Source of the DNA: a virus
Reading direction: 5' to 3' (one strand)
Length of the DNA: 30,849 nt
Virus genome (UHGV): UHGV-0006354
The position numbers and the translations under genes are program-made. The notes below the pieces were generated by a model. It did not search any database, was not told the origin of the DNA, and saw nothing but the letters and a program-made list of their open reading frames with translations. Below, in pieces: positions 8,534 through 29,184 of the stretch. Position 1 is the first letter of the stretch. Each line of letters begins with the position of its first letter.

Positions 8534-9517
8534 CTAATTTACATGTATGTAGAGTTCACTGTCACTAGACCAGTCGGGGCACTCTAAAGCAAGCCCAAAC
8601 TGCTTGTATATTTCATCAATGACTAATGTTATCTCAAGATAATCATCAAAACCTGTAATGCGTTGATCATTGAATTTTTCATAAAGATTCTGAAATGCAG
8701 CTCCTAACTCTGATAATTGATTCCTTATTTTTGAGTTGGATAGTGTAAGGGCTAGTTTTGGGTCGTATTCATTAATATTGATGTTTAGAGAATGGACGTA
8801 ACCTATCGCATAAGCATAGGAGTTGATAATTAGCTTGAAGCGTTTTTTTGCTTCAAGATACATTTCATTCAGAGAAATATTGCCTCTTTTATAGTTCAGA
8901 GTGAGATTTTCAATCTCGTCAGACACTTCATTTACAACAGTATCAAGATTCTCTAGAAATAAATCGATAGTCTCTTGAGGGGCTGACCACGAAGACATGT
9001 AATTAGCAAGATATTCAGACCATGCACGAGTGGCTGTGATAAGCAGCGCGTCGCCATACTCGTTGACTGTAAAGTTTTGGGCTAAGCATGTTAGTAAGTT
9101 TTTTTCATGTACGTGCACTAACTCATGGTGAATGCGATGGATGACTGCGCGGTATCCTTCTTCATTTAATTTCAGGAAGCTACCATCATTAAAAAGCTCA
9201 CCAAAAAAATCAATAGATAGCACAAGGGTATATTCTTCACATAGCCCATCGCTGCCAATTTTTGTTACTAATTGCCCGACGGCTGCGCCCTGTTTGCTAT
9301 TGGTAAATGAACTAGGGGATTTGTGTTGGTAAATGGAAGTCACATTTTGAAGAGCTTCACTGAAATTATAGGAGACAACCACGCATTTTAATTTTGAGAT
9401 ATCAAGATTGAGATTTTTTGTTAAGACTCGAATAGCTTCTAGCGTGAAGTTACCGATATTATTTGCTTCTTGCTCAGTAGTGAAACCTTCGAGGGTTATT
9501 TTAAAATCAGTTTCCAA
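8534..9517 (-). CDS. AT-rich cargo gene: HExxH-motif (zinc-metallopeptidase-like) protein of unknown function, inserted between cos and portal gene Q
   Basis: 327 aa, TTG start with GGAG Shine-Dalgarno; HELVH at residues 131-135; no signal peptide or transmembrane segment; plausible sigma70 promoter (TTGAAG-17-TATAGT on minus strand, plus about 9557-9585). Confidence 0.8.
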   Translation of the reverse strand: METDFKITLEGFTTEQEANNIGNFTLEAIRVLTKNLNLDISKLKCVVVSYNFSEALQNVTSIYQHKSPSSFTNSKQGAAVGQLVTKIGSDGLCEEYTLVLSIDFFGELFNDGSFLKLNEEGYRAVIHRIHHELVHVHEKNLLTCLAQNFTVNEYGDALLITATRAWSEYLANYMSSWSAPQETIDLFLENLDTVVNEVSDEIENLTLNYKRGNISLNEMYLEAKKRFKLIINSYAYAIGYVHSLNININEYDPKLALTLSNSKIRNQLSELGAAFQNLYEKFNDQRITGFDDYLEITLVIDEIYKQFGLALECPDWSSDSELYIHVN

Positions 9518-17926: not shown

Positions 17927-18374
17927 ATTAACCGCGCTGCAGGAACGCCTTGCCGGTCTGATTGCCAGCCTGTCACCAGCGGCACGTCGGCAAATGGCGG
18001 TTGAGGTTGCGAAAAAGCTGCGTACCAGTCAGCAACAGCGTATCAAGCGCCAGCAGGCACCCGACGGCACCCCGTATGCGGCACGAAAGCGCCAGCCGGT
18101 GCGGAGCAAGAAAGGTCGGATTAAACGTGAAATGTTCACCAAACTGCGCACCAGTCGCTTTATGAAAGCCAAAGGCAGCGACAGTGCGGCGGTGGTGGAG
18201 TTTACCGGCAAGGTGCAGCGCATGGCGCGGGTGCATCAGTACGGCCTAAAAGACCGGCCAAACCGCAACAGCCGGGATGTGCAGTACGAGGCGCGACCGT
18301 TGCTCGGATACTCTTCATCAGACTTACAAAAAGTTGAGAGTTTAATTATGGATGCTTTATGTCAACGCCATTGA
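17919..18374 (+). CDS. S: Tail completion / virion morphogenesis protein S
   Basis: 151 aa (P2 S 150 aa); synteny R-S. Confidence 0.8.
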   Translation: MSELTALQERLAGLIASLSPAARRQMAVEVAKKLRTSQQQRIKRQQAPDGTPYAARKRQPVRSKKGRIKREMFTKLRTSRFMKAKGSDSAAVVEFTGKVQRMARVHQYGLKDRPNRNSRDVQYEARPLLGYSSSDLQKVESLIMDALCQRH

Positions 18375-18382
18375 CTTTGGAT

Positions 18383-18411
18383 TCGCTGAGAATTATTATA
18401 TAACTCAGCGA
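18383..18411. promoter_or_regulatory. Inverted repeat (8-bp stem, AT-rich 13-nt loop) in the convergent S / cargo-gene intergenic region
   Basis: TCGCTGAG-AATTATTATATAA-CTCAGCGA; no flanking T-tract on either strand. Confidence 0.3.
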
Positions 18412-18447
18412 TAGAGGTGGACTGGTGTCTAGGTGGGCGTGCCCACT

Positions 18448-18475
18448 GAGTTGGGTTCGATTCCCTAACCTCGTA
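18448..18475 (+). other. tRNA 3'-end-like fragment (T-arm plus partial acceptor), not a complete tRNA
   Basis: GGGTTCGATTCCC T-loop motif at 18453-18465, followed by ACCTCGT without CCA; no matching 5' acceptor, D or anticodon arm upstream; overlaps the cargo gene stop. Confidence 0.3.
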
Positions 18476-19301
18476 TTATTCCTCTCGATATTTTTATTGC
18501 TGGGTTTTCCTTTCTTATTTCATTTTTAATTTGCTCATCACAAATTAAATAATCTATGTTTTTTGCTTTAACAAGTTCTTTAACGTTAATGTTAATTGAA
18601 TTTAATAGATTTGCATTCCGCATGTTAGCCCCTTCATAAGTAACGGATTTAAAATCACATCCTTTTAATATGCAGCTTTTCATTTCGCTATCTGTAAAAT
18701 ACCCCCCTTCAAAACTGCAGTTTTCGAAAGTGACATTTTGAAAACATGTATTAAATGCCTTAATATTTCTTAGCTTGCAGTTTTTGAATTTAACACTCTT
18801 AACTCTATTGCCTGTAATATTTAGAGCTTGAATTGTGCAATTATCGAAAGAACAATCTCTAATGTATGATTCGCTCATATTCAAGCCGGTTAAGTCAGCG
18901 TCTTTAAAGTGTAAATATTTGATAGTGGACATTTTATCAAGTTCAATCCTTGGAACTTGAATGTTATATATTCCTTTAGCATTTAACTGACGTATGATTT
19001 TTATCTTCATAATATTCAGTTCTGCAGAAGAATGCTTTGCCAGATTTTCAAGATCTTCAATTAGTTCGTGAATAGCATCTTTATTTTGCCTTTTATTTTC
19101 AAAATAGTAAAGAATCACACCCAAAACAAGAAAGTCTAAAATTGAAGAATTTGCATTAACAAGAAAATTCTCCATGAATTTTGAGTTGTAGTTATCATTA
19201 TAAACAGACAACCCTACTATAAGCCCGGAGTATAAAAAAAAGATACCTATAATATATTTCATATTGCTTATTGTACGCCTAAAAGATGAAGTTCTTTTCA
19301 T
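18465..19301 (-). CDS. AT-rich cargo gene: membrane-anchored pentapeptide-repeat protein, inserted between S and V
   Basis: 279 aa from ATG 19299-19301 (track ORF extends to GTG 19346); basic N-terminus then two hydrophobic helices (KYIIGIFFLYSGLIVGLSVY, ILDFLVLGVILYYF); C-terminal repeats of the form ..NC..F.. (DNCTI, KNCKL, ENCSF, KGCDF). Confidence 0.75.
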   Translation of the reverse strand: MKRTSSFRRTISNMKYIIGIFFLYSGLIVGLSVYNDNYNSKFMENFLVNANSSILDFLVLGVILYYFENKRQNKDAIHELIEDLENLAKHSSAELNIMKIKIIRQLNAKGIYNIQVPRIELDKMSTIKYLHFKDADLTGLNMSESYIRDCSFDNCTIQALNITGNRVKSVKFKNCKLRNIKAFNTCFQNVTFENCSFEGGYFTDSEMKSCILKGCDFKSVTYEGANMRNANLLNSININVKELVKAKNIDYLICDEQIKNEIRKENPAIKISRGIIRG

Positions 19302-19438
19302 TACTACCTGCCATATGTTTTGTGTGATTTTCGAATGAGTCAACACTCAAATGATACATGAATGCACACCGAATTGTGTAGAAGAGCATACAGCTGAATC
19401 GTTTTGCTCTTGGCTTTAACAATCGGCATTCTTTGTTC

Positions 19439-20074
19439 ATGAACACATTAAACACCATTCAAGAGTTAGCACGTGCCATTCGCAACCTCATCCGCTCAGG
19501 CGTGGTGACTGAGGTCGATACTGTGCAGGGGCTGTGCCGCGTACAAAGCGGCGGGATCCAGACTACATGGCTGAACTGGCTGACCACCCGCGCCGGTCGT
19601 TCGCGGACGTGGTGGGCTCCCTCGGTCGGTGAGCAGGTTCTGCTGCTGGCAATCGGTGGCGAGCTTGATACCGCTTTCGTGCTGCCGGGTATTTTCTCCG
19701 ACGATAACCCCGCCCCGTCTGCCTCGGCGGATGCGTGGCATGTGGCTTTCCCTGATGGTGCGGTCATTGAGTACGAGCCCGAAACCGGCGCGCTGACGGT
19801 CAGCGGCATAAAAACGGCCGACGTGACGGCATCGGAGTCCATCACCGCAACCGTACCGCTGGTACTGGTGAAAGCCTCGACCAGTATCACCCTCGACACC
19901 CCGGAGGTGATTTGCACCAATAAGCTAACGACGGCGACGCTTGAGGTGCAGAAAGGCGGCAAGATGAGCGGCAATATCGAACATACCGGCGGGTCACTGT
20001 CGTCTAATGGCAAGGTACTCCACACCCATAAACACCCGGGCGACAGCGGCGGGCAAACGGGGGCACCGTTATGA
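19439..20074 (+). CDS. V: Baseplate spike / assembly protein V
   Basis: MNTLNTIQELARAIRNL... and RSRTWWAPSVGEQVL match P2 V; track start 19433 is a TTG two codons upstream. Confidence 0.85.
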   Translation: MNTLNTIQELARAIRNLIRSGVVTEVDTVQGLCRVQSGGIQTTWLNWLTTRAGRSRTWWAPSVGEQVLLLAIGGELDTAFVLPGIFSDDNPAPSASADAWHVAFPDGAVIEYEPETGALTVSGIKTADVTASESITATVPLVLVKASTSITLDTPEVICTNKLTTATLEVQKGGKMSGNIEHTGGSLSSNGKVLHTHKHPGDSGGQTGAPL

Positions 20075-20418
20075 CGGCGCGCTATCAGGGGATGAACCGA
20101 AATACCGGCCTTGGCATCAGCGATACCGAGCATATCAGCCAGAGCATGCGCGATATTCTGCTGACGCCGGTCGGCTCGCGGGTGATGCGTCGTGAATATG
20201 GCTCGCTTCTGTCGGCGCTGATTGATATGCCGCAAAACCCGGCGCTCAGGCTGCAAATTATGGTGGCGTGCTATTCGGCTATCCAGAAGTGGGAACCGCG
20301 CATCAGGCTTACATCCATCAGCTTTGAGGCCGGCGACGCTGGCGAGATGTATGTCGATATTACCGGGATGCGTACCGATACCGGTGCGTCAGTTTCAACC
20401 ACTGTTTCACTGAGTTAA
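20071..20418 (+). CDS. W: Baseplate wedge protein W (gp25-like)
   Basis: 115 aa, identical length to P2 W. Confidence 0.85.
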   Translation: MTARYQGMNRNTGLGISDTEHISQSMRDILLTPVGSRVMRREYGSLLSALIDMPQNPALRLQIMVACYSAIQKWEPRIRLTSISFEAGDAGEMYVDITGMRTDTGASVSTTVSLS

Positions 20419-20424
20419 ATAACT

Positions 20425-21333
20425 ATGGCAACCGTTGACCTGAGTCAGTTACCCGTTCCCGATGTGGTTGAGGAACTGGACTATGAAACCATCCTTGCGG
20501 AACGCAAAGCGACGCTGATATCGCTCTATCCAGAAGACAAGCAGGAGGCCATTGCCCGGACGCTCACACTTGAGTCAGAGCCGGTTGTTAAGCTGCTGCA
20601 GGAAAACGCCTACCGTGAAGTTATCTGGCGTCAGCGGGTGAACGAAGCCGCGCAGGCGGTGACGCTGGCCTACTCCGCCGGTAACGACCTCGACGTCGTA
20701 GCCGGGAACAATAATACCGAACGCCTGACCATCACCCCGGCGGATGATACCACCATCCCGCCGACACCTGCCGTTATGGAATCTGATACCGACCTGCGAC
20801 TGCGCACGCAACAGGCGTTTGAGGGATTGAGCGTGGCGGGTCCGGTCGGTGCATATGAGTATCACGGCCGCAGCGCCGACGGGCGGGTCGCTGACGTTTC
20901 GGTCGCCAGCCCGTCGCCAGCCTGCGTGACGATTACCGTGCTATCGCGTGAGGGGGACGGCACTGCCAGCCCTGAGCTACTGGCGATTGTTGATAAAGCG
21001 CTGAACGCCGAAGATGTGCGCCCGGTAGCTGACCGGGTGACCGTCCAGTCAGCCGAGATTGTGCCGTACCAGATTGACGCGACGATCTATGTTTACCCCG
21101 GCCCCGAATCTGAACCCATCAGGCAGGCGTCAGAGCAGAAGCTGCAGAGCTACATCAGCGCGCAGCACCGCCTCGGGCGTGATATCCGTCTGTCAGCCAT
21201 TTATGCGGCGCTGCATGTTGAGGGGGTGCAGCGTGTCGAGCTGACATCACCGCAGGCCGACATAGTGCTGAGTAAGTCGCAGGCGTCGAACTGTACCGAG
21301 TACCAGATAACTATCGGGGGCTCGGATGAATGA
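20425..21333 (+). CDS. J: Baseplate assembly protein J
   Basis: 302 aa, identical length to P2 J. Confidence 0.85.
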   Translation: MATVDLSQLPVPDVVEELDYETILAERKATLISLYPEDKQEAIARTLTLESEPVVKLLQENAYREVIWRQRVNEAAQAVTLAYSAGNDLDVVAGNNNTERLTITPADDTTIPPTPAVMESDTDLRLRTQQAFEGLSVAGPVGAYEYHGRSADGRVADVSVASPSPACVTITVLSREGDGTASPELLAIVDKALNAEDVRPVADRVTVQSAEIVPYQIDATIYVYPGPESEPIRQASEQKLQSYISAQHRLGRDIRLSAIYAALHVEGVQRVELTSPQADIVLSKSQASNCTEYQITIGGSDE

Positions 21334-21934
21334 CCGGCTATTACCCGTTGGCTCGTCGCCGCTGGAGGTCGCCGCCGCCGCTGCGTTCTCTGAGATTCAG
21401 CGCGTGCCGGTACCGCTGCGCACCCTGTGGAACTGGCGCACCTGCCCGGTAAAGCTGCTGCCGTATCTGGCGTGGGCGCTGTCGGTCGACAGGTGGGATG
21501 AGAAATGGCCGGAGGCGACAAAGCGCAGCGTCTGCGCGTCCTCGTTTTTCGTCCATCAGCACAAAGGCACCATCAGCGCATTGCGTCGGGTCGTCGAGCC
21601 GCTCGGCTTTCTGATTGAGGTGCGCGAGTGGTGGCAACTCGACGAGGAGCCAGGCACATTCCGCCTCGTTGTTGGCGTCCTCGACAGCGGCATCACTGAC
21701 GAAATGTATCAGGAGCTTGAGCGCCTGATTGAAGACGCCAAACCGGCAAGTCGCCACCTGACCGGGCTGGCTATCAGTCTGAGCTCGACCGGCGAACTGT
21801 ATGTCGGCGCGGGATGCTATCACGGCGACGCGCTGACTGTTTACCCCTACACCCCCGAGGAGATTGTCGTCGGCGGTGAATATTACCCGGCCTCGGCCAT
21901 CCATTTGATTGATAATCTGAGAGTGAACGCATGA
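21326..21934 (+). CDS. I: Baseplate protein I
   Basis: 202 aa; synteny J-I-H. Confidence 0.8.
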   Translation: MNDRLLPVGSSPLEVAAAAAFSEIQRVPVPLRTLWNWRTCPVKLLPYLAWALSVDRWDEKWPEATKRSVCASSFFVHQHKGTISALRRVVEPLGFLIEVREWWQLDEEPGTFRLVVGVLDSGITDEMYQELERLIEDAKPASRHLTGLAISLSSTGELYVGAGCYHGDALTVYPYTPEEIVVGGEYYPASAIHLIDNLRVNA

Positions 21935-23007
21935 CCGCAAAATATTTTGCCATTCTGACCAATCAGGGCGCGGCGCGGCTGGCGAACGCGGCGGCACTCG
22001 GTACCAAACTCAACCTGACGCAGATGGCCGTCGGTGATGCGAATGGTACGTTGCCGAACCCTGACCCGGCGCAGACGAAGCTCATTAACCAGAAACGCAT
22101 CGCGCCGCTGAACCTGCTGACCGTTGACCCGGCCAATACCAGTCAGATTATCGCGGAACAGATTATTCCCGAGAATGAAGGTGGTTTCTGGATCCGCGAG
22201 ATTGGTCTCTATGACGATGATGGTATTCTGATTGCCGTGGCGAACTGTCCGGAGACCTACAAGCCACAACTGCAGGAGGGAAGCGGTCGCACGCAGACCA
22301 TTCGCATGATTCTGATTGTGTCGAGCACATCGGCAATCACCCTGAAAATCGACCCGGCAGTCGTGCTGGCAACGCGCCAGTATGTCGACGACAAGATTAT
22401 CGAGGTGAAAGGATATGCTGATGACCTGATGAAAAAACATGTTGAGGCCGCCAATCCACACAAGCAGTACCCGTTAATCGCTAATGCTCTGAAAGAAATG
22501 GTTGACGCGGGACTGGCCGGCGACGTTCTTAAAAACCTTGGTTTGGGAGAAACGATAAATAAAGCCTCCGGAGCTATGCAGAAATCGGCTAATGGAGCTG
22601 ATATTTCTGATGTATCAGCCTTCCGAAATGCGCTCCAGTTAGGGACCGCCGCAACACGAGATGTTGGAGCAGATAATGCCTCGAAGTTACTGGATTTAGA
22701 CAGCTTCAGGTCAATGATGTCAGGGAATGGCTACATCTACATTCCATGCATTGCGACGACAGGAAACCCGGTGAAACTTATGTTGCAGTGGGGAACGGTG
22801 GCAACACAAAAGGGAGCTGATGCTGGATATGCCTTACCATTTGCTTTTCCCTATGCAGGCTTATTTGCGACCGGAAACCGTGGAACATCTGGCTACAATG
22901 CCGCGATGAATGTGCGTATTGCCAGCAGAACGCATATCAGTATTCAGAACTGGTCGCCATCCGGAGAGGGCACCGAAGATTGTTGTTTTATCGCGCTGGG
23001 GTATTAA
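21931..23007 (+). CDS. H: Tail fibre protein (P2 H-like constant N-terminal part with a short exchanged C-terminal receptor-binding part)
   Basis: 358 aa; N-terminal about 160 aa resemble P2 H; from about 22440 the sequence is AT-richer; C-terminus ends ...CCFIALGY. Confidence 0.8.
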   Translation: MTAKYFAILTNQGAARLANAAALGTKLNLTQMAVGDANGTLPNPDPAQTKLINQKRIAPLNLLTVDPANTSQIIAEQIIPENEGGFWIREIGLYDDDGILIAVANCPETYKPQLQEGSGRTQTIRMILIVSSTSAITLKIDPAVVLATRQYVDDKIIEVKGYADDLMKKHVEAANPHKQYPLIANALKEMVDAGLAGDVLKNLGLGETINKASGAMQKSANGADISDVSAFRNALQLGTAATRDVGADNASKLLDLDSFRSMMSGNGYIYIPCIATTGNPVKLMLQWGTVATQKGADAGYALPFAFPYAGLFATGNRGTSGYNAAMNVRIASRTHISIQNWSPSGEGTEDCCFIALGY

Positions 23008-23009
23008 GA

Positions 23010-23420
23010 ATGAATAAATTTTATAAAGGCTCTTTCTATCCGAAAGCACTAAAAGAGGTATATATCAGCGCCGATTCATGGCCTGAAAATGGCGTTGATG
23101 TTGATGATGAAACAATGGCAATTTACACAGGCGTAGCGCCACAAGGCAAAACGCAGGGGGCTGATAAAAATGGTAATCCTGCGTGGATTGATATCCCGCC
23201 ACTCTCCGCTGAACAACAGATTATTCAGGCTGAACAGAAAAGAACGGTATTGCGTTCTATGGCTGATAAGGAAATAGCCTGGAGACAGGATGCTTTTGAT
23301 GCGGAAATCGCGACGGCAGAAGAAACCGCCGCGTTATCTGAATGGAAAAAATACCGGGTCCTGCTGATGCGCGTTGATACAGCAAAACCCGTATGGCCTG
23401 TCAATCCGCAGGATATTTAA
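23010..23420 (+). CDS. G: Tail fibre assembly chaperone (Tfa / P2 G-like)
   Basis: 136 aa from ATG 23010; C-terminal motif LSEWKKYRVLLMRVDTAKPVWPVNPQ typical of Tfa proteins. Confidence 0.7.
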   Translation: MNKFYKGSFYPKALKEVYISADSWPENGVDVDDETMAIYTGVAPQGKTQGADKNGNPAWIDIPPLSAEQQIIQAEQKRTVLRSMADKEIAWRQDAFDAEIATAEETAALSEWKKYRVLLMRVDTAKPVWPVNPQDI

Positions 23421-23634
23421 CGGGGGCGTTGTAGGTGGTGACATATTCAAGCAGTTCTGTTGGATATGTCACCGTTGCTGCATCTCGCTCTACGTTAAAT
23501 GTATCCGCTCCCCAGATAACACACTCCCTCAAAAATGCCTCCACCTCTGGCGAGACTTCAACCGCATCATCAGGTCGCTCTTGTTCAGAAACATAAAAAC
23601 CAACGGTCGTTGGGCTGAAATAGATATTCTCCAT
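23401..23634 (-). CDS. Inverted alternative tail-fibre assembly-like ORF (short, part of an invertible-cassette remnant)
   Basis: 77 aa, tail-to-tail with Tfa and overlapping it by 20 nt; directly follows the alternative fibre segment on the minus strand. Confidence 0.4.
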   Translation of the reverse strand: MENIYFSPTTVGFYVSEQERPDDAVEVSPEVEAFLRECVIWGADTFNVERDAATVTYPTELLEYVTTYNAPVKYPAD

Positions 23635-23636
23635 AT

Positions 23637-24068
23637 TTAGTATCCTATTGCTTCAAAATGCAGTGTCGGTGTTTCGCCGAGATTGGGTGTCGTATACGCC
23701 ACAGTGAATCGCGTTCTTGATACGTCAGTGCCAGAATCAGTATCGCGATGCGTTGCCAGTGATTTTCCGGCCATTGATGCCTGGGTCGAAAAGCTGTAAC
23801 TCGCTAATGTTGCCAGCGTTGCTATTTGTGCATTTGGGAATTGTCTGGGGAAATTAACCCTGTAGTAATGGGTGTAGTACGTCACCCCACCAAGCACCTG
23901 CGCGTTGAAGTTACCAACTGGTGTCAGTGTCACAGTGCCAGCCTGTCGAATCATACCATTTGGGAGAATATCCCAGGCAGTTTGTCCGTTTCGCGACATA
24001 CCAAATGCGGACATGTCCGGGAGTTGATTATTACCGGTTCCGACATCCCGTTTTGCCGCTTCTCCCAA
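23637..24068 (-). CDS. Inverted alternative tail-fibre C-terminal segment (promoterless cassette, no ATG)
   Basis: N-terminus LGEAAKRDVGTGNNQLPDMSAF parallels H residues 237-256 LGTAATRDVGADNASKLLDLDSF; C-terminus ...LHFEAIGY parallels H ...CFIALGY; an in-frame stop lies just upstream. Confidence 0.55.
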   Translation of the reverse strand: MGEAAKRDVGTGNNQLPDMSAFGMSRNGQTAWDILPNGMIRQAGTVTLTPVGNFNAQVLGGVTYYTHYYRVNFPRQFPNAQIATLATLASYSFSTQASMAGKSLATHRDTDSGTDVSRTRFTVAYTTPNLGETPTLHFEAIGY

Positions 24069-24139
24069 TTGAACCTTTTAGAAAATGCAGATATTCCGTT
24101 CAGCTGGCATGTTCCCGACTTTTTACCGGGTTATTTCTC

Positions 24140-24386
24140 ATGTTTATCGGTTATGTACGTGTATCAACAAATGACCAGAACACCGCATTACAGCGAAATG
24201 AACTGGAGTGCGCAGGATGTGAGCTGATTTTCGAAGATAAAATCAGCGGCAAAACATCAATCAGACTGGCCGGGGCTAAAGAGGTTACTCAGAACCTTGT
24301 CAGAGGGCGATACGCTTGTGGTCTGGAAACTGGATCGCCTCGGGTATCTCAACGCTATACAAACAATTTCCCGCATCCGTTGCTGA
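24140..24386 (+). pseudogene. Serine DNA invertase (Gin/Hin/Cin/Pin family) remnant: frameshifted and 3'-truncated
   Basis: MFIGYVRVSTNDQNTALQRNELECAGCELIFEDKISG matches the Gin N-terminus; about 24260 the homology shifts frame (DWPGLKRLLRTLSEGDTLVVWKLDRLG) and stops at 24384-24386; C-terminal DNA-binding half absent. Confidence 0.7.
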
Positions 24387-24484
24387 TGTCTCAATGTGTC
24401 AGACATCGCCCAACACTGACAAATAGCCCCTCAACAGACCAGCCAGGACAATAACACTTGCCCACTAACCACGGAGTTAACCGG

Positions 24485-25663
24485 ATGAGTGATTTTCACC
24501 ACGGCGTGCAGGTGCTTGAGATTAACGACGGCACCCGCGTCATTTCCACTGTTGCAACCGCAATTGTCGGCATGGTCTGCACGGCCAGCGATGCGGATGC
24601 CGAGACATTCCCCCTCAACGAACCGGTATTGATTACCAATGTGCAGAGCGCCATTGCAAAAGCCGGTAAAAAAGGCACGTTGTCTGCCTCCCTGCAGGCT
24701 ATCGCCGACCAGTCAAAACCCGTCACAGTTGTCGTGCGTGTTGCCGAAGGTACCGGAGAAGACGCCGAAGCGCAGACCATTTCCAATATCATCGGCGGCA
24801 CGGATGAGAACGGTAAATATACCGGCATCAAGGCGCTGTTGACTGCCGAAGCAGTCACCGGCGTTAAGCCGCGCATTCTCGGCGTGCCGGGTCTCGATAC
24901 CAAAGAGGTCGCAGTCGCACTTGCTTCGGTCTGTATCAGCCTGCGCGCGTTTGGTTATGTCAGCGCATGGGGTTGTAAAACCATTTCCGAGGCGATGGCC
25001 TATCGCGAGAATTTCAGTCAGCGCGAGCTGATGGTCATCTGGCCTGACTTCCTCGCATGGGACACCACCACTAACGCCACCGCAACAGCCTACGCCACCG
25101 CTCGCGCGCTCGGTCTGCGCGCCTACATCGACCAGACTGTCGGCTGGCATAAAACCCTGTCTAACGTCGGTGTGCAGGGTGTCACCGGCATCAGTGCCTC
25201 AGTGTTTTGGGATTTGCAGGCATCCGGCACCGATGCTGACCTGCTCAACGAGGCCGGGGTCACGACGCTGGTGCGCAAGGATGGTTTCCGCTTTTGGGGT
25301 AACCGCACCTGCTCTGATGACCCGCTTTTCCTGTTTGAGAACTACACCCGCACCGCGCAGGTGCTGGCCGACACGATGGCCGAGGCGCACATGTGGGCGG
25401 TCGACAAACCCATCACCGCATCGCTTATCCGTGACATTGTCGACGGTATTAACGCCAAATTCCGCGAGCTGAAATCAAATGGCTACATCGTGGACGGTGA
25501 ATGCTGGTTCGACGAGGAATCGAACGATAAGGAAACCCTCAAGGCCGGGAAACTGTATATCGACTACGACTATACGCCGGTTCCACCACTGGAAAGCCTG
25601 ACCCTGCGCCAGCGTATCACCGATAAATATCTGGTGAATCTGGCCGAATCGGTCAACAGCTAA
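24485..25663 (+). CDS. FI: Contractile tail sheath protein (P2 FI)
   Basis: 392 aa from ATG 24485 (track begins at TTG 24458); MSDFHHGVQVLEINDGTRVISTVATAIVGMVCTASDADAETFPL nearly identical to P2 FI. Confidence 0.9.
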   Translation: MSDFHHGVQVLEINDGTRVISTVATAIVGMVCTASDADAETFPLNEPVLITNVQSAIAKAGKKGTLSASLQAIADQSKPVTVVVRVAEGTGEDAEAQTISNIIGGTDENGKYTGIKALLTAEAVTGVKPRILGVPGLDTKEVAVALASVCISLRAFGYVSAWGCKTISEAMAYRENFSQRELMVIWPDFLAWDTTTNATATAYATARALGLRAYIDQTVGWHKTLSNVGVQGVTGISASVFWDLQASGTDADLLNEAGVTTLVRKDGFRFWGNRTCSDDPLFLFENYTRTAQVLADTMAEAHMWAVDKPITASLIRDIVDGINAKFRELKSNGYIVDGECWFDEESNDKETLKAGKLYIDYDYTPVPPLESLTLRQRITDKYLVNLAESVNS

Positions 25664-25678
25664 GGAGCCTGAAATAAC

Positions 25679-26197
25679 ATGGCACTACCCCGCAAACTCA
25701 AATATCTGAACATGTTCAACGACGGTCTGAGCTACATGGGCGTTGTTGAATCCGTGACACTGCCGAAGCTGACCCGCAAGCTCGAAAACTATCGCGGCGG
25801 CGGTATGAATGGTGCGGCGGCGATTGACCTCGGTCTCGACGATGATGCGTTAACCGTCGAGTGGTCTGTCGGTGGCCTGCCTGATGTGGCGCTGTGGGCG
25901 CAGTACGCCGCGCCGGGTGCTGACGCTGTGCCGCTGCGTTTTGCTGGATCCTACCAGCGCGACGACACCGGCGAAATCATCGCGGTCGAGGTGGTCATGC
26001 GTGGCCGTCATAAAGAAATCGACGGCGGCGAAAATAAGCAGGGTGAAAACACCTCGACCAAACTGTCGACCGTTTGCACCTATTACCGCCTGACGATTGA
26101 TGGTAGCGACGTCATCGAAATCGACACCGTCAACATGGTCGAGAAGGTGAACGGCGTCGACCGTCTGGAACAGCACCGCCGCGCAATCGGGCTGTAA
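25679..26197 (+). CDS. FII: Tail tube protein (P2 FII)
   Basis: 172 aa, identical length to P2 FII. Confidence 0.9.
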   Translation: MALPRKLKYLNMFNDGLSYMGVVESVTLPKLTRKLENYRGGGMNGAAAIDLGLDDDALTVEWSVGGLPDVALWAQYAAPGADAVPLRFAGSYQRDDTGEIIAVEVVMRGRHKEIDGGENKQGENTSTKLSTVCTYYRLTIDGSDVIEIDTVNMVEKVNGVDRLEQHRRAIGL

Positions 26198-26258
26198 TTC
26201 CCTGACCGGTCAGCATGGCTGGCAGGTTATTAATCCCCTTTCAGAGCAGAGAAAAAAT

Positions 26259-26595
26259 CATGGCTAAAGCACCACGTAAAACCGCTGAATTTGTTGATAC
26301 GGCTGGCAATGAAATTGACACCGTAAACCCGAACGTCGTGACCCTCGACAAGCCGATTAAGCGCGCCGGTCAGACGATTGATAAAGTCACCCTGATTGAG
26401 CCGAACGCCGGTACCCTGCGCGGTGTCAGTCTGGCGGCGGTGGCGCAGTCTGAGGTCGATGCGCTGATTAAAGTCCTGCCCCGCATGACCTATCCCGCGC
26501 TCACCACGCAGGAACTGACCGCGATGAACCTGCCCGATATGCTGTCGCTGGCCGCTAAGGTGATTGGTTTTTTGTCACCGGCTTCGGCGGAGTAG
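26259..26595 (+). CDS. E: Tail assembly chaperone E (zero-frame product)
   Basis: 112 aa from ATG 26259; followed by the slippery site. Confidence 0.8.
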
Positions 26596-26747
26596 ACTTC
26601 CCGCCCGACCTGTCGACCGATGACCTGATGGCGGATATCGCGGTGATATTCCACTGGCCGCTATCAGAGCTCGATTCCCTGAGCCTGACCGAGCTCATCA
26701 CATGGCGCGAAAAGGCGCTGCAGCGTAGCGGACACCACAATGAGTAA
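26259..26747 (+). CDS. E': E+E' frameshift fusion product (tail assembly chaperone)
   Basis: Zero frame to 26573, then -1 frame to 26747; overlaps the T start at 26740. Confidence 0.65.
26568..26574 (+). other. Programmed -1 ribosomal frameshift slippery heptamer T_TTT_TTG for E/E'
   Basis: TTTTTTG near the 3' end of E; the -1 frame stays open to TAA at 26745-26747 and encodes ...DLMADIAVIFHWPLSELDSLSLTELITWREKALQRSGHHNE, matching my recollection of P2 E'. Confidence 0.75.
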
Positions 26748-29184
26748 TAACCTGAGACTTGAGGTTTTGCTGAAAGCGGTCGACCAGGCGACCCGACCGC
26801 TTAAATCCATCCAAACCGCGAGTAAAACCCTGTCGGGCGATATTCGCGACACACAAAAAGGGCTACGTGACCTGAACGGGCAGGCCGCGAAAATCGACGG
26901 CTTTCGCAAAACCAGCGCTCAACTGGCCGTAACCGGCCAGTCGCTGGAGAAGGCAAAGCGCGAGGCTGAAGCGCTTGCCACGCAATTCAAAAATACTGAG
27001 CGCCCGACGCGAGCGCAGGCACAGGTGCTCGAATCCGCAAAACGTGCCGCCGAGGGGCTGCAGGTTAAATACAACAGCCTCACCGAGTCGGTTAAACGCC
27101 AGCAACGCGAGCTGGGTGCTGCCGGTATCAATACCCGCAATCTGGCAAACGATGAGCGGGGGCTTAAAACACGCATCAGCGAGACGACGGCGCAGCTCAA
27201 CCGGCAGCGTGAAGCATTGGCGAAGGTCAGCGCACAGCAGGCGCACCTAAACCGAGTGAAAGAGCGATATAAATCGGGTAAGGAGCTTGCCGGTAACATG
27301 GCCGCTGCAGGTGCTGCCGGGGTCGGTATTGCGACAGCGGGAACGATGGCCGGGGTTAAATTGCTGATGCCCGGTTATGACTTTGCGCAAAAAAACTCCG
27401 AGCTGCAGGCCGTGCTTGGGGTCAATAAGCAGTCTCCAGAAATGCAGGCTCTACGCAAACAGGCGCGTCAGCTCGGCGATAACTCAGCGGCCTCAGCAGA
27501 TGATGCCGCCGCCGCGCAGATTATCGTAGCCAAATCTGGCGCAGATAAAGACGGCATAGTGGCGCAAACACCGGCCATTCTGAATATGTCGCTGGCAAAT
27601 AAAAAAACTATGGAGGAAAACGCCGCTTTGCTTATTGGCACCAAATCGGCATTCGGGCTCGCAGATGACAAGGCATCGCATATAGCAGATGTCATATCGA
27701 TGGCGATAAATAAAACACAGGCATCATTTGAGGGATTAAACGACTCACTTACATATGTTGGTCCAGTTGCCAAAGATGCCGGTGTCAGCCTAGAAGAAAC
27801 CGCCGCGATGCTGGGTGCGTTACACGATGCAAAAATCATAGGTTCGATGGCAGGAACCGGTAGCCGAGCTGTTTTAAGTCGACTGCAGGCTCCAACTGGC
27901 AAAGCCTATGATGCCATTAAAGAGCTTGGCGTTAAGACGATGGATAAAAAAGGCAATACACGGCCAATCTTTACCATCCTGAAAGAAATACAAGCCAGCT
28001 TTAAGCGCAACAACCTCGGTACAGGTCAAAAAGCCGAGTATATGAAAACGATATTCGGCGAGGAAGCCAGTTCCGCTGCAAGTGTGTTAATGGCCGCAGC
28101 GGCCAGTGGAAAACTGGATGAACTGACCAAGATAATTAAGGATTCTGACGGTAAAACCGAGGAATTGGTTAAGGTCATGCAGGATAACTTAGGTGGCGAC
28201 TTCAAAGAGTTTCAATCCGCTTATGAGGCCGTCGGTACCGACCTCTACGACCAGCAAGATAGCTCATTGCGTCAGCTAACTCAGACAGCAACACGGTATG
28301 TGCTAAAGCTTGATGACTGGATCAAAGACAACAAGGAGTTAGCGGAAACTATCGGCATCATCGCCGGTGGTGCGCTGGCGCTGATTGGTATCATCGGCGG
28401 CATTGGTCTCGTTGCGTGGCCGGTTGTCATGGGGATTAATGCCATTATCGCCGCTGCTGGCGTGCTGGGTACGGTCTTTACTGTCGTCGGTAGTGCCATT
28501 GCGACAGCGCTCGGTGCGATTACCTGGCCGATAGTGGCCGTCGGTGCGGCGATTGTGGCGGGGGCGCTACTCATCCGTAAATATTGGGAGCCCATCAGCG
28601 CATTTTTCTCGGGAGTGATTGAGGGCATCATGAGTGCCTTTGCCCCAGTCGGGGAAATGTTCGCTCCACTGGCTCCCATTTTTGATGGTCTCGGCGAGAA
28701 ACTGCGCGGCGTCTGGCAGTGGTTTAAAGACCTGATAGCACCGGTTAAGGCCACGCAGGAAACGCTTGATAGCTGCAAAAGTGTCGGCGTCATATTTGGT
28801 CAGGCACTGGCCTCTGCCTTGATGGCTCCGCTCAATGTTTTTAACAAGCTGCGCAGCGGTGTCGACTGGCTTCTCGAAAAGCTCGGCATCATCAACAAAG
28901 AGTCGGACAGCCTCGACCAGACCGCCGCCAAAACCAATGCCGCCACACAGGGTAATTCCTACATCCCGGCAACCAGCACATATGGCGGCTATCAGGCTTA
29001 TCAGCCAGTTACCGCACCGGCGGGGCGCTCTTACATTGACCAGAGCAAAAGCGAATACAACATCAATCTGCCGGGAGGTGTTGCGCCGGGGCATCAGCTT
29101 GACAGACAACTACGCGACACGCTCGAACAGATTGAGCGCGATAAACGCGCCCGCCAGCGTGCCAACATGACCCACGACTATTGA
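26740..29184 (+). CDS. T: Tail tape-measure protein (P2 gpT family)
   Basis: 814 aa; long coiled-coil N-terminal half, hydrophobic Gly/Ala-rich central segment; synteny E-T-U-D. Confidence 0.9.
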   Translation: MSNNLRLEVLLKAVDQATRPLKSIQTASKTLSGDIRDTQKGLRDLNGQAAKIDGFRKTSAQLAVTGQSLEKAKREAEALATQFKNTERPTRAQAQVLESAKRAAEGLQVKYNSLTESVKRQQRELGAAGINTRNLANDERGLKTRISETTAQLNRQREALAKVSAQQAHLNRVKERYKSGKELAGNMAAAGAAGVGIATAGTMAGVKLLMPGYDFAQKNSELQAVLGVNKQSPEMQALRKQARQLGDNSAASADDAAAAQIIVAKSGADKDGIVAQTPAILNMSLANKKTMEENAALLIGTKSAFGLADDKASHIADVISMAINKTQASFEGLNDSLTYVGPVAKDAGVSLEETAAMLGALHDAKIIGSMAGTGSRAVLSRLQAPTGKAYDAIKELGVKTMDKKGNTRPIFTILKEIQASFKRNNLGTGQKAEYMKTIFGEEASSAASVLMAAAASGKLDELTKIIKDSDGKTEELVKVMQDNLGGDFKEFQSAYEAVGTDLYDQQDSSLRQLTQTATRYVLKLDDWIKDNKELAETIGIIAGGALALIGIIGGIGLVAWPVVMGINAIIAAAGVLGTVFTVVGSAIATALGAITWPIVAVGAAIVAGALLIRKYWEPISAFFSGVIEGIMSAFAPVGEMFAPLAPIFDGLGEKLRGVWQWFKDLIAPVKATQETLDSCKSVGVIFGQALASALMAPLNVFNKLRSGVDWLLEKLGIINKESDSLDQTAAKTNAATQGNSYIPATSTYGGYQAYQPVTAPAGRSYIDQSKSEYNINLPGGVAPGHQLDRQLRDTLEQIERDKRARQRANMTHDY

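Follow-up and report, generated by a model that had tools for sequence, protein, structure and literature searches.

Does a tail-fibre switch stop turning once the invertase gene beside it has died? The question is posed by a host-range cassette in the virus genome UHGV-0006354, a stretch of 30,849 nucleotides (all of it referred to here as the window) that corresponds approximately to a whole P2-like (Peduoviridae) prophage, from the integrase gene (159-1208) through gene D. An origin in Escherichia coli is indicated by a metagenome scaffold that matches positions 17931-27000 at 100% and by the occurrence of the exact H tail-fibre protein in many E. coli assemblies. An earlier interpretation, made from the letters alone (the sequence-only reading), had recognized a tail-fibre cassette with a broken invertase gene at this locus and had taken it to be decayed and apparently locked in one orientation. 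The comparisons described below make it likely that the locus is a Din-family (Gin/Cin/Pin/Hin-type) host-range cassette in a P2-like prophage that has lost its own invertase and has kept all of its cis-acting parts.

The cassette and its crossover sites

The tail-fibre gene H (21931-23007, plus strand) carries the Pfam domains Phage_tail_fib and Gp53-like_C. Its constant N-terminal part, Hc (21931..22539, plus strand), includes Phage_tail_fib at residues 1-150 (E 1e-62), ends at the core of a crossover site, and has the same flanks in a prophage that carries the cassette in flipped form (L018, discussed below). Hc continues in frame into the variable C-terminal tip that is now expressed, HvA (22540..23007, plus strand; Gp53-like_C at residues 283-358), and H is followed by the gene for a 136-amino acid Tfa/G-like assembly protein that is cognate to HvA (23010..23420, plus strand; Caudo_TAP, E 2e-30; PHROG 188, E 2e-41). 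Tail to tail with this pair, on the minus strand, are a silent open reading frame (ORF) of 77 amino acids (23401..23634), which occupies the position of an alternative chaperone gene (the equivalent of Mu U'), and the silent alternative tip, HvB (23637..24071), an ORF of 143 codons (23637-24068) that matches Gp53-like_C (E 3.9e-7) and PHROG tail-fibre families. HvB has no ATG; upon inversion it is predicted to read Hc...DVLKNL-QLGEAAKRDVG...IGY, yielding a fibre protein, H', of 347 amino acids. The locus thus comprises two alternative fibre C-termini, both of the Gp53-like_C type and each with a downstream gene, and the Pfam and PHROG matches together with the ORF layout confirm the tail-to-tail arrangement and the ATG-less, inverted fibre-tip segment proposed in the sequence-only reading.

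The label "Tfa-like" that had been given to the inverted 77-amino acid ORF is partly supported. Its sole support is a match of residues 1-31 to the N-terminal part of PHROG 188, "tail fiber assembly protein" (E 9e-5); a Pfam search gave no match and BLASTP similarity to Tfa was not significant (E 0.18). The same ORF is present in two E. coli P2-like prophages with working invertases, L002 and L003 (there WP_001340317.1), and it lies directly 3' of the gene for H' in the flipped L018. Both the silent tip and the 77-amino acid ORF are undamaged and differ little or not at all from copies that adjoin intact invertase genes, and HvA is 99-100% identical to the corresponding part of the L002 and L003 cassettes.

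The likeness to the Mu G segment and the P1 C segment that had been proposed for this locus is supported: a constant part, two inverted sets of tips, crossover sites, and a dead Gin-type gene are all present. In Mu G/Gin, P1 C/Cin, and e14 P/PinE, a 26-bp site likewise joins a constant fibre N-terminus to either of two C-termini, each tip is accompanied by an assembly gene, both sets stand tail to tail, and the invertase is encoded immediately beyond the right site. The window differs from these three systems in that its invertase gene is dead, having suffered an internal deletion and a frameshift, its tips are gp53-like, one of its alternative "chaperones" is only 77 amino acids long, and the inner half of its right site has TTG rather than ACC beside the core. 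Its P2-like backbone further distinguishes it from Mu and P1.

Two 26-bp Din-type sites bound the cassette. The left site (22526..22551) lies inside H, where it encodes VLKNLGLGE, and has the form TTCTTAAAAACC-TT-GGTTTGGGAGAA (as a whole, TTCTTAAAAACCTTGGTTTGGGAGAA); the right site (24060..24085) lies just upstream of the invertase gene and has the form TTCTCCCAATTG-AA-CCTTTTAGAAAA (as a whole, TTCTCCCAATTGAACCTTTTAGAAAA). When the 30.8-kb window was scanned with a symmetric pattern derived from hixL, TTNTNNNAAANNNNNNTTTNNNANAA, allowing at most one mismatch, these two places were the only ones to match (0.15 matches are expected by chance), the left site doing so with zero mismatches. A search for repeats returned an inverted repeat, I1, that pairs 22532-22559 with 24052-24079. 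The two sites are inverted with respect to each other, and their central dinucleotides, TT on the left and AA on the right of the plus strand, are the same core when one is inverted. Both resemble Mu gixL (TTATCCAAAACCTCGGTTTACAGGAA) and gixR, as read from the Mu genome, with which they have the core architecture ...AAACC-NN-GGTTT... in common.

This result reverses the statement in the sequence-only reading that 26-bp sites are missing from the expected junctions: the search for gix/hix-like sequences found both, the left one ~90 bp upstream of 22620-22640, an interval in which the left junction had been placed and in which there is no site. The similarity to H residues 237-256 that had been proposed for the N-terminus of the inverted segment is weak and by itself not significant (pairwise E 0.17); the true junction is at H residues ~200-207, within the left site. 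The likeness of LGTAATRDVG to LGEAAKRDVG that could have marked such a junction was rejected on the strength of the same pairwise comparison and because it is a recurrent fibre motif.

Homology of the cassette begins at window position 22535, at the left core, in more than 800 E. coli records. In comparisons with three relatives that have an intact invertase (two P2-like prophages and one P1-like plasmid), near-identity runs from the left core to the right core, outside of which the left flanks are unrelated and the right flanks are ~80% identical. Further, the outer half of the right site, CCTTTTAGAAAA, is unchanged across all loci that bear the remnant of the invertase gene, and the inner half moves with the cassette. 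The coincidence of homology boundaries with the site cores suggests that the sites are points at which modules are exchanged. It was considered whether the core-adjacent TTG marks the right site as "degenerate"; this was rejected, as the TTG inner half also stands next to intact invertases in L002-L004 and both forms of the junction are common.

The same cassette and its sites were seen in several other settings. The P1-like plasmid L004 (CP010173) shares the fibre-tip cassette (window 22535-24073) at 95-97% identity, and the shared cassette is joined to differing constant parts that include P2-like H proteins of three lengths, a P1-like fibre of more than 1000 amino acids, and, among lambdoid-type matches, proteins described as "prophage tail fiber N-terminal domain." In E. 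coli TW10598 (L007, CP035846, ~1500-1560), a defective sister prophage has lost O through the constant part of H, such that the start of terminase gene P has been brought to within ~20 nt of the cassette. The breakpoint coincides with the left-site core (TTCTCCCAAAGC/CGTCATTCAAGG), and this fusion may be a product of aberrant recombination at the crossover site. A relative represented by an assembled contig (L020, Logan ERR10766175 contig 18, 5047-5528) carries a flipped-type H' (97% identical) and a 77-amino acid ORF without the other half of the cassette and without an invertase remnant; immediately afterwards come a right-site-like AACCTTTTGAATAA, a hairpin that includes a T-run, and then the promoter of FI.

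The invertase remnant and its probable control sequences

The gene beyond the right site (24140..24426, plus strand) is a pseudogene of a Gin/Pin-type serine invertase of the Din family, in which Pfam detects the Resolvase domain in two frames. Its 5' part (24140-24344, plus strand) encodes residues 1-67 and includes the catalytic-serine motif GYVRVSTNDQ. The alignment to Mu Gin that the sequence-only reading had put forward as a check gives a clear outcome: once the frameshift is repaired, residues 1-67 match residues 1-67 of Mu Gin (PDB 4m6f) at E 3e-29. The reading frame was lost through a tandem duplication of ATCA at 24256-24263. Downstream, at a junction at ~24343-24345, an internal deletion has removed ~103 codons, equivalent to residues 68-170 of the 197-amino acid invertase of L002, and the 3' end of the gene is retained in a third frame (24343-24426, plus strand; GISTLYKQFPASVADVSMCQTSPNTDK and a stop codon that ends at 24426). 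This retained end reads GISTLYKQFPAS...TDK before its stop and has as its counterpart in L002 ...GLSTLYKKFPSS...RDK. To judge from the structures of Gin and Hin, the lost residues would include the helix used for oligomerisation and the greater part of the DNA-binding domain. A Gin-type N-terminus with a frameshift near 24260 had been noted correctly in the sequence-only reading; what did not hold is that the gene is simply an N-terminal third closed by a premature stop.

The history of these lesions can be read from six aligned remnant loci, namely those of the window, phage vB_EcoM-613R3, VG888, strain 222, TW10598 (L007), and EC1 (L008). The deletion junction, GATCGCCTCGGG/TATCTCAACGC, is the same in six of six. 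The ATCA duplication is present in the window, vB_EcoM-613R3, VG888, and strain 222; TW10598 has no duplication and remains in frame through ...SGKTSDWPGLKRLLRTLSEGDTLVVWKLDRLG, and EC1 also has no duplication and carries a 1-nt deletion instead. The six loci share the junction but not the frameshifts, which places the deletion first and makes the frameshifts later, independent events in a gene that was already dead. RefSeq labels identical remnants "recombinase family protein, frameshifted."

It might be argued that the invertase gene is really intact and was corrupted in sequencing, or that the inversions described below are misassemblies across inverted repeats. No point in favor of such an artefact was found, and we regard it as hardly credible. 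Five complete E. coli genomes and the metagenome scaffold contain the remnant at 100% identity, which indicates that the lesions are not sequencing errors; the deletion junction and the ATCA duplication recur in many independent complete genomes as well as in a phage record; and inverted repeats of 26 bp are too short to mislead assemblers.

The part of the gene that has been retained contains a putative recombinational enhancer (24161..24224), proposed on the basis of similarity to Mu gin and consisting of two Fis-type G-N13-C elements ~48-49 bp apart. These elements begin 89 bp from the center of the right site (a spacing of ~90-100 bp). The retained 5' 200 bp are 70% identical to Mu gin, and within them a 21-nt block, GTATCAACAAATGACCAGAA, as well as GCAGGATGTGA, match the 5' end of Mu gin exactly. 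As summarized in a paper that cites the original work, the Mu enhancer lies within gin (Kahmann et al., 1985, cited in PMC3798978), and the same paper gives ~100 bp as the distance from hixL to the proximal Fis site (cited in PMC3798978). Din-family enzymes require such an enhancer in cis, and the 5' stub of a dead gene may still carry one on which Fis acts.

At its other end, the retained part of the invertase gene overlaps the late promoter region of the FI operon (24393..24461, plus strand), which is 92% identical to the phage 186 region that contains the B-protein binding site and pJ, the late promoter of the sheath operon. By homology to 186, the activator-binding site is at ~24393-24412 and the promoter at ~24424-24461, both on the plus strand, with FI starting at 24485; in P2, pF is in the place equivalent to 24393-24461. 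The 3' end of the invertase gene has probably been kept because of this promoter, which may also explain the endpoint of the deletion.

Cassette orientation among E. coli genomes

A total of 35 of 5426 complete E. coli genomes carry the remnant, and it stands beside at least four different cassettes. An exact-match scan for the deletion junction in contigs, taking one genome per species, returned 0 matches. For the cassette type of the window, the junction that inversion would create was predicted by exchange at the central dinucleotide and then searched for in E. coli records, where 86 records have the flipped junction at full length and 98-99% identity, as against 49 with the unflipped one. 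Judged from these sequences, cassettes of this type do invert when accompanied by an intact invertase.

The cassettes that adjoin the dead gene are also found in both orientations. In EC1 and KE40 the prophage is the same, the J, I, FI, FII, and T proteins having identical accessions and the invertase being dead, and the two cassettes are 100% identical over 1.9 kb and inverted exactly from core to core. Similarly, the cassette type of strain 222 (L006-type), located beside the remnant, is unflipped in three genomes and flipped in five at 99.9-100% identity; the unflipped ones are 222, 103, and 5283, and the flipped ones 2779, 98210, 98192, 98224, and FDAARGOS_1280. For the cassette of the window itself, the predicted H' was found as an E. 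coli protein (P0001) of 347 amino acids with 99% identity and 100% coverage. The locus that encodes it, L018 (GCA_025420935.1), has the backbone of the window, including the pentapeptide-repeat ORF described below. Its remnant shows 0 mismatches over 24072-24500, and only six single-nucleotide polymorphisms (SNPs) separate its cassette from the reverse complement of 22540-24071. The sites of L018 are TTCTTAAAAACC-TT-CAATTGGGAGAA and TTCTCCCAAACC-AA-CCTTTTAGAAAA, such that the inner half of the left site has been swapped for the reverse complement of the inner half of the right site.

Because the bases that flank the core differ between the partner sites, comparison of L018 with the window pins the exchange to the 2-bp core, the only sequence common to both at the exchange point, which leaves no homology on which RecA could act. 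Homologous recombination was therefore rejected as the cause of the inversion in the cassette of the window, and exchange confined to the core is, in sequence terms, the signature of a serine invertase. That exchange at a 2-bp core has given both orientations is shown by comparison between genomes (L018, EC1 and KE40, and the 86 versus 49 records), and among prophages whose invertase gene is dead the inversion runs precisely from core to core.

An alternative account would be that the switch is a fossil, in which the death of the invertase froze the cassette in its present orientation and left the inverted half as a decaying relic. The invertase is certainly non-functional, and orientation A, that of the window, dominates in public assemblies. 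However, both crossover sites are intact, the silent ORFs are as undamaged as the copies next to live invertases, a prophage with the identical dead gene has been seen flipped (L018), and two other cassette types of the lineage occur in both orientations. A frozen switch is accordingly an unlikely explanation; the description "locked in one orientation" is contradicted for the lineage, and of the general decay that had been read into the locus only the death of the invertase gene stands.

Slightly less likely still is that the orientation variants are whole cassettes that were imported from other phages, in either orientation, by recombination at or near the sites. In keeping with import, at least four unrelated cassettes adjoin one identical remnant with their boundaries at the 2-bp site cores, and the cassette of L018 differs from that of the window by its six SNPs as compared with one in the flanks. 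The identity of the EC1 and KE40 cassettes over their full 1.9 kb argues against it, as does the near-identity of the L006-type cassettes in eight genomes that come from related clinical isolates. Moreover, import would still need recombination at a 2-bp core and hence a Din invertase supplied in trans.

Some points weigh against the view that a cassette without its own invertase is still being flipped. Orientation A is much commoner than orientation B in public assemblies (76 index blocks versus four contigs), which may mean that flipping is rare or may reflect clonal sampling. The excess of SNPs in the L018 cassette over its flanks means that this cassette may have been acquired in flipped form, without inversion on the spot, although import of a flipped cassette at the cores would also require a trans-acting Din invertase. 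Lastly, the enhancer has been assigned solely from its similarity to Mu gin.

The operation proposed for the cassette is as follows. In the orientation of the window, the late transcript running from V to G reads Hc and tip A, followed by Tfa, and tip B and the 77-amino acid ORF are silent, as they face the wrong way and have neither start codon nor promoter. A serine invertase would cut both 26-bp sites at the central TT/AA dinucleotide, and the half-sites would rotate and religate, thereby joining Hc to tip B. The resident gene, killed by the deletion of ~103 codons and later by the ATCA duplication, cannot supply this enzyme, so flipping would depend on a Din-family invertase provided in trans by another element in the cell, such as PinE of e14 or the invertase of a P1-, Mu-, or P2-like prophage; Fis would act on the putative enhancer in the retained 5' 200 bp. 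By a rough count with blastn, about half of complete E. coli genomes encode a near-full-length homologue of a Din invertase. Action in trans is established for Din invertases, an example being Fin of the P2-like prophage Fels-2, which acts on hix (Kutsukake, 2006, as cited in PMC4272514). A broader proposal, to which we give a little less than even odds, is that the lineage is permanently without an invertase of its own but retains both crossover sites and a 5' gene stub with the enhancer, that its switching is conditional on the Din invertases of other elements, and that its sites also serve to swap whole tip cassettes among P2-like, P1-like, lambdoid, and Mu-like elements.

Genomic context, relatives, and implications

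The tail genes of the window follow the order V, W, J, I, H, Tfa, the cassette and remnant region, FI (24485-25663), FII, E, and T. As judged from the ORF layout, the Pfam domains of neighboring genes, and homology to pJ and pF, this is the P2-like tail-cluster order V-W-J-I-H-G-[variable locus]-pF-FI-FII-E-T-U-D. In P2, the gap between G and pF is occupied by fun(Z), and the cassette region fills the matching gap between G and FI, as the sequence-only reading had claimed in assigning it to the Z/fun variable locus.

Two further ORFs were noted. An ORF of 293 amino acids (18465-19346, minus strand) lies in an island of 30-33% GC between the tail genes S and V, where P2 has orf30. A weak match to RTasSLATT in PADLOC (E 6e-5) in its N-terminal region is followed by pentapeptide repeats (PF13599, E 2e-16), and the product is possibly a moron or else a defence or abortive-infection effector. 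An ORF of 327 amino acids (8534-9517, minus strand; 35-40% GC) lies between the replication gene A and the portal gene Q, which is the old/tin hotspot of P2; searches of Pfam and PADLOC with this ORF gave no match.

Among P2-like relatives, L002 and L003 have the gene order H-Tfa-(inverted set)-invertase-FI as in the window and carry its cassette at 95-99% identity. The invertible loci of the P2-like prophages of enteropathogenic E. coli (EPEC) E2348/69 were shown by sequencing to undergo phase variation (Goldberg et al., 2014, PMC4272514). L002, L003, the E2348/69 prophages, and Fels-2 all have a working invertase of 188-197 amino acids, whereas the lineage of the window is without codons 68-170. 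In phage 186, the GenBank record (U32222, L012) annotates a 26-bp "Mu-like inversion crossover site," TTGTCCAGAATATCGGTTTAAAACCC, at 670-695 in the fibre gene K. Phage 186 is thus another member of the P2 family in which a fibre gene has a Din-type site at the boundary between its constant and variable parts; however, its one site is a relic, and it lacks both an inverted second set and a remnant of an invertase gene, whereas the window keeps its cassette and both sites.

The switch described here is of a well-known kind, with Mu G, P1 C, e14 P, and the invertible loci of P2-like prophages as its counterparts, and the mechanism is not new; what is particular to this lineage, as genome comparison has it, is that a deletion in the invertase has become fixed and the switch evidently still turns. 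It provides what is probably a natural example of Din invertases acting in trans and of cassette exchange at their sites. For annotation, it follows that a frameshifted recombinase gene beside a fibre cassette does not equate to a frozen host range, since the sites in cis can remain functional. The finding also bears on how structural variation among otherwise clonal E. coli genomes is read, and on the prediction of host range for induced P2-like phages or tailocin-like particles, given that the fibre that is made may hinge on which other prophages and plasmids are present in the cell.

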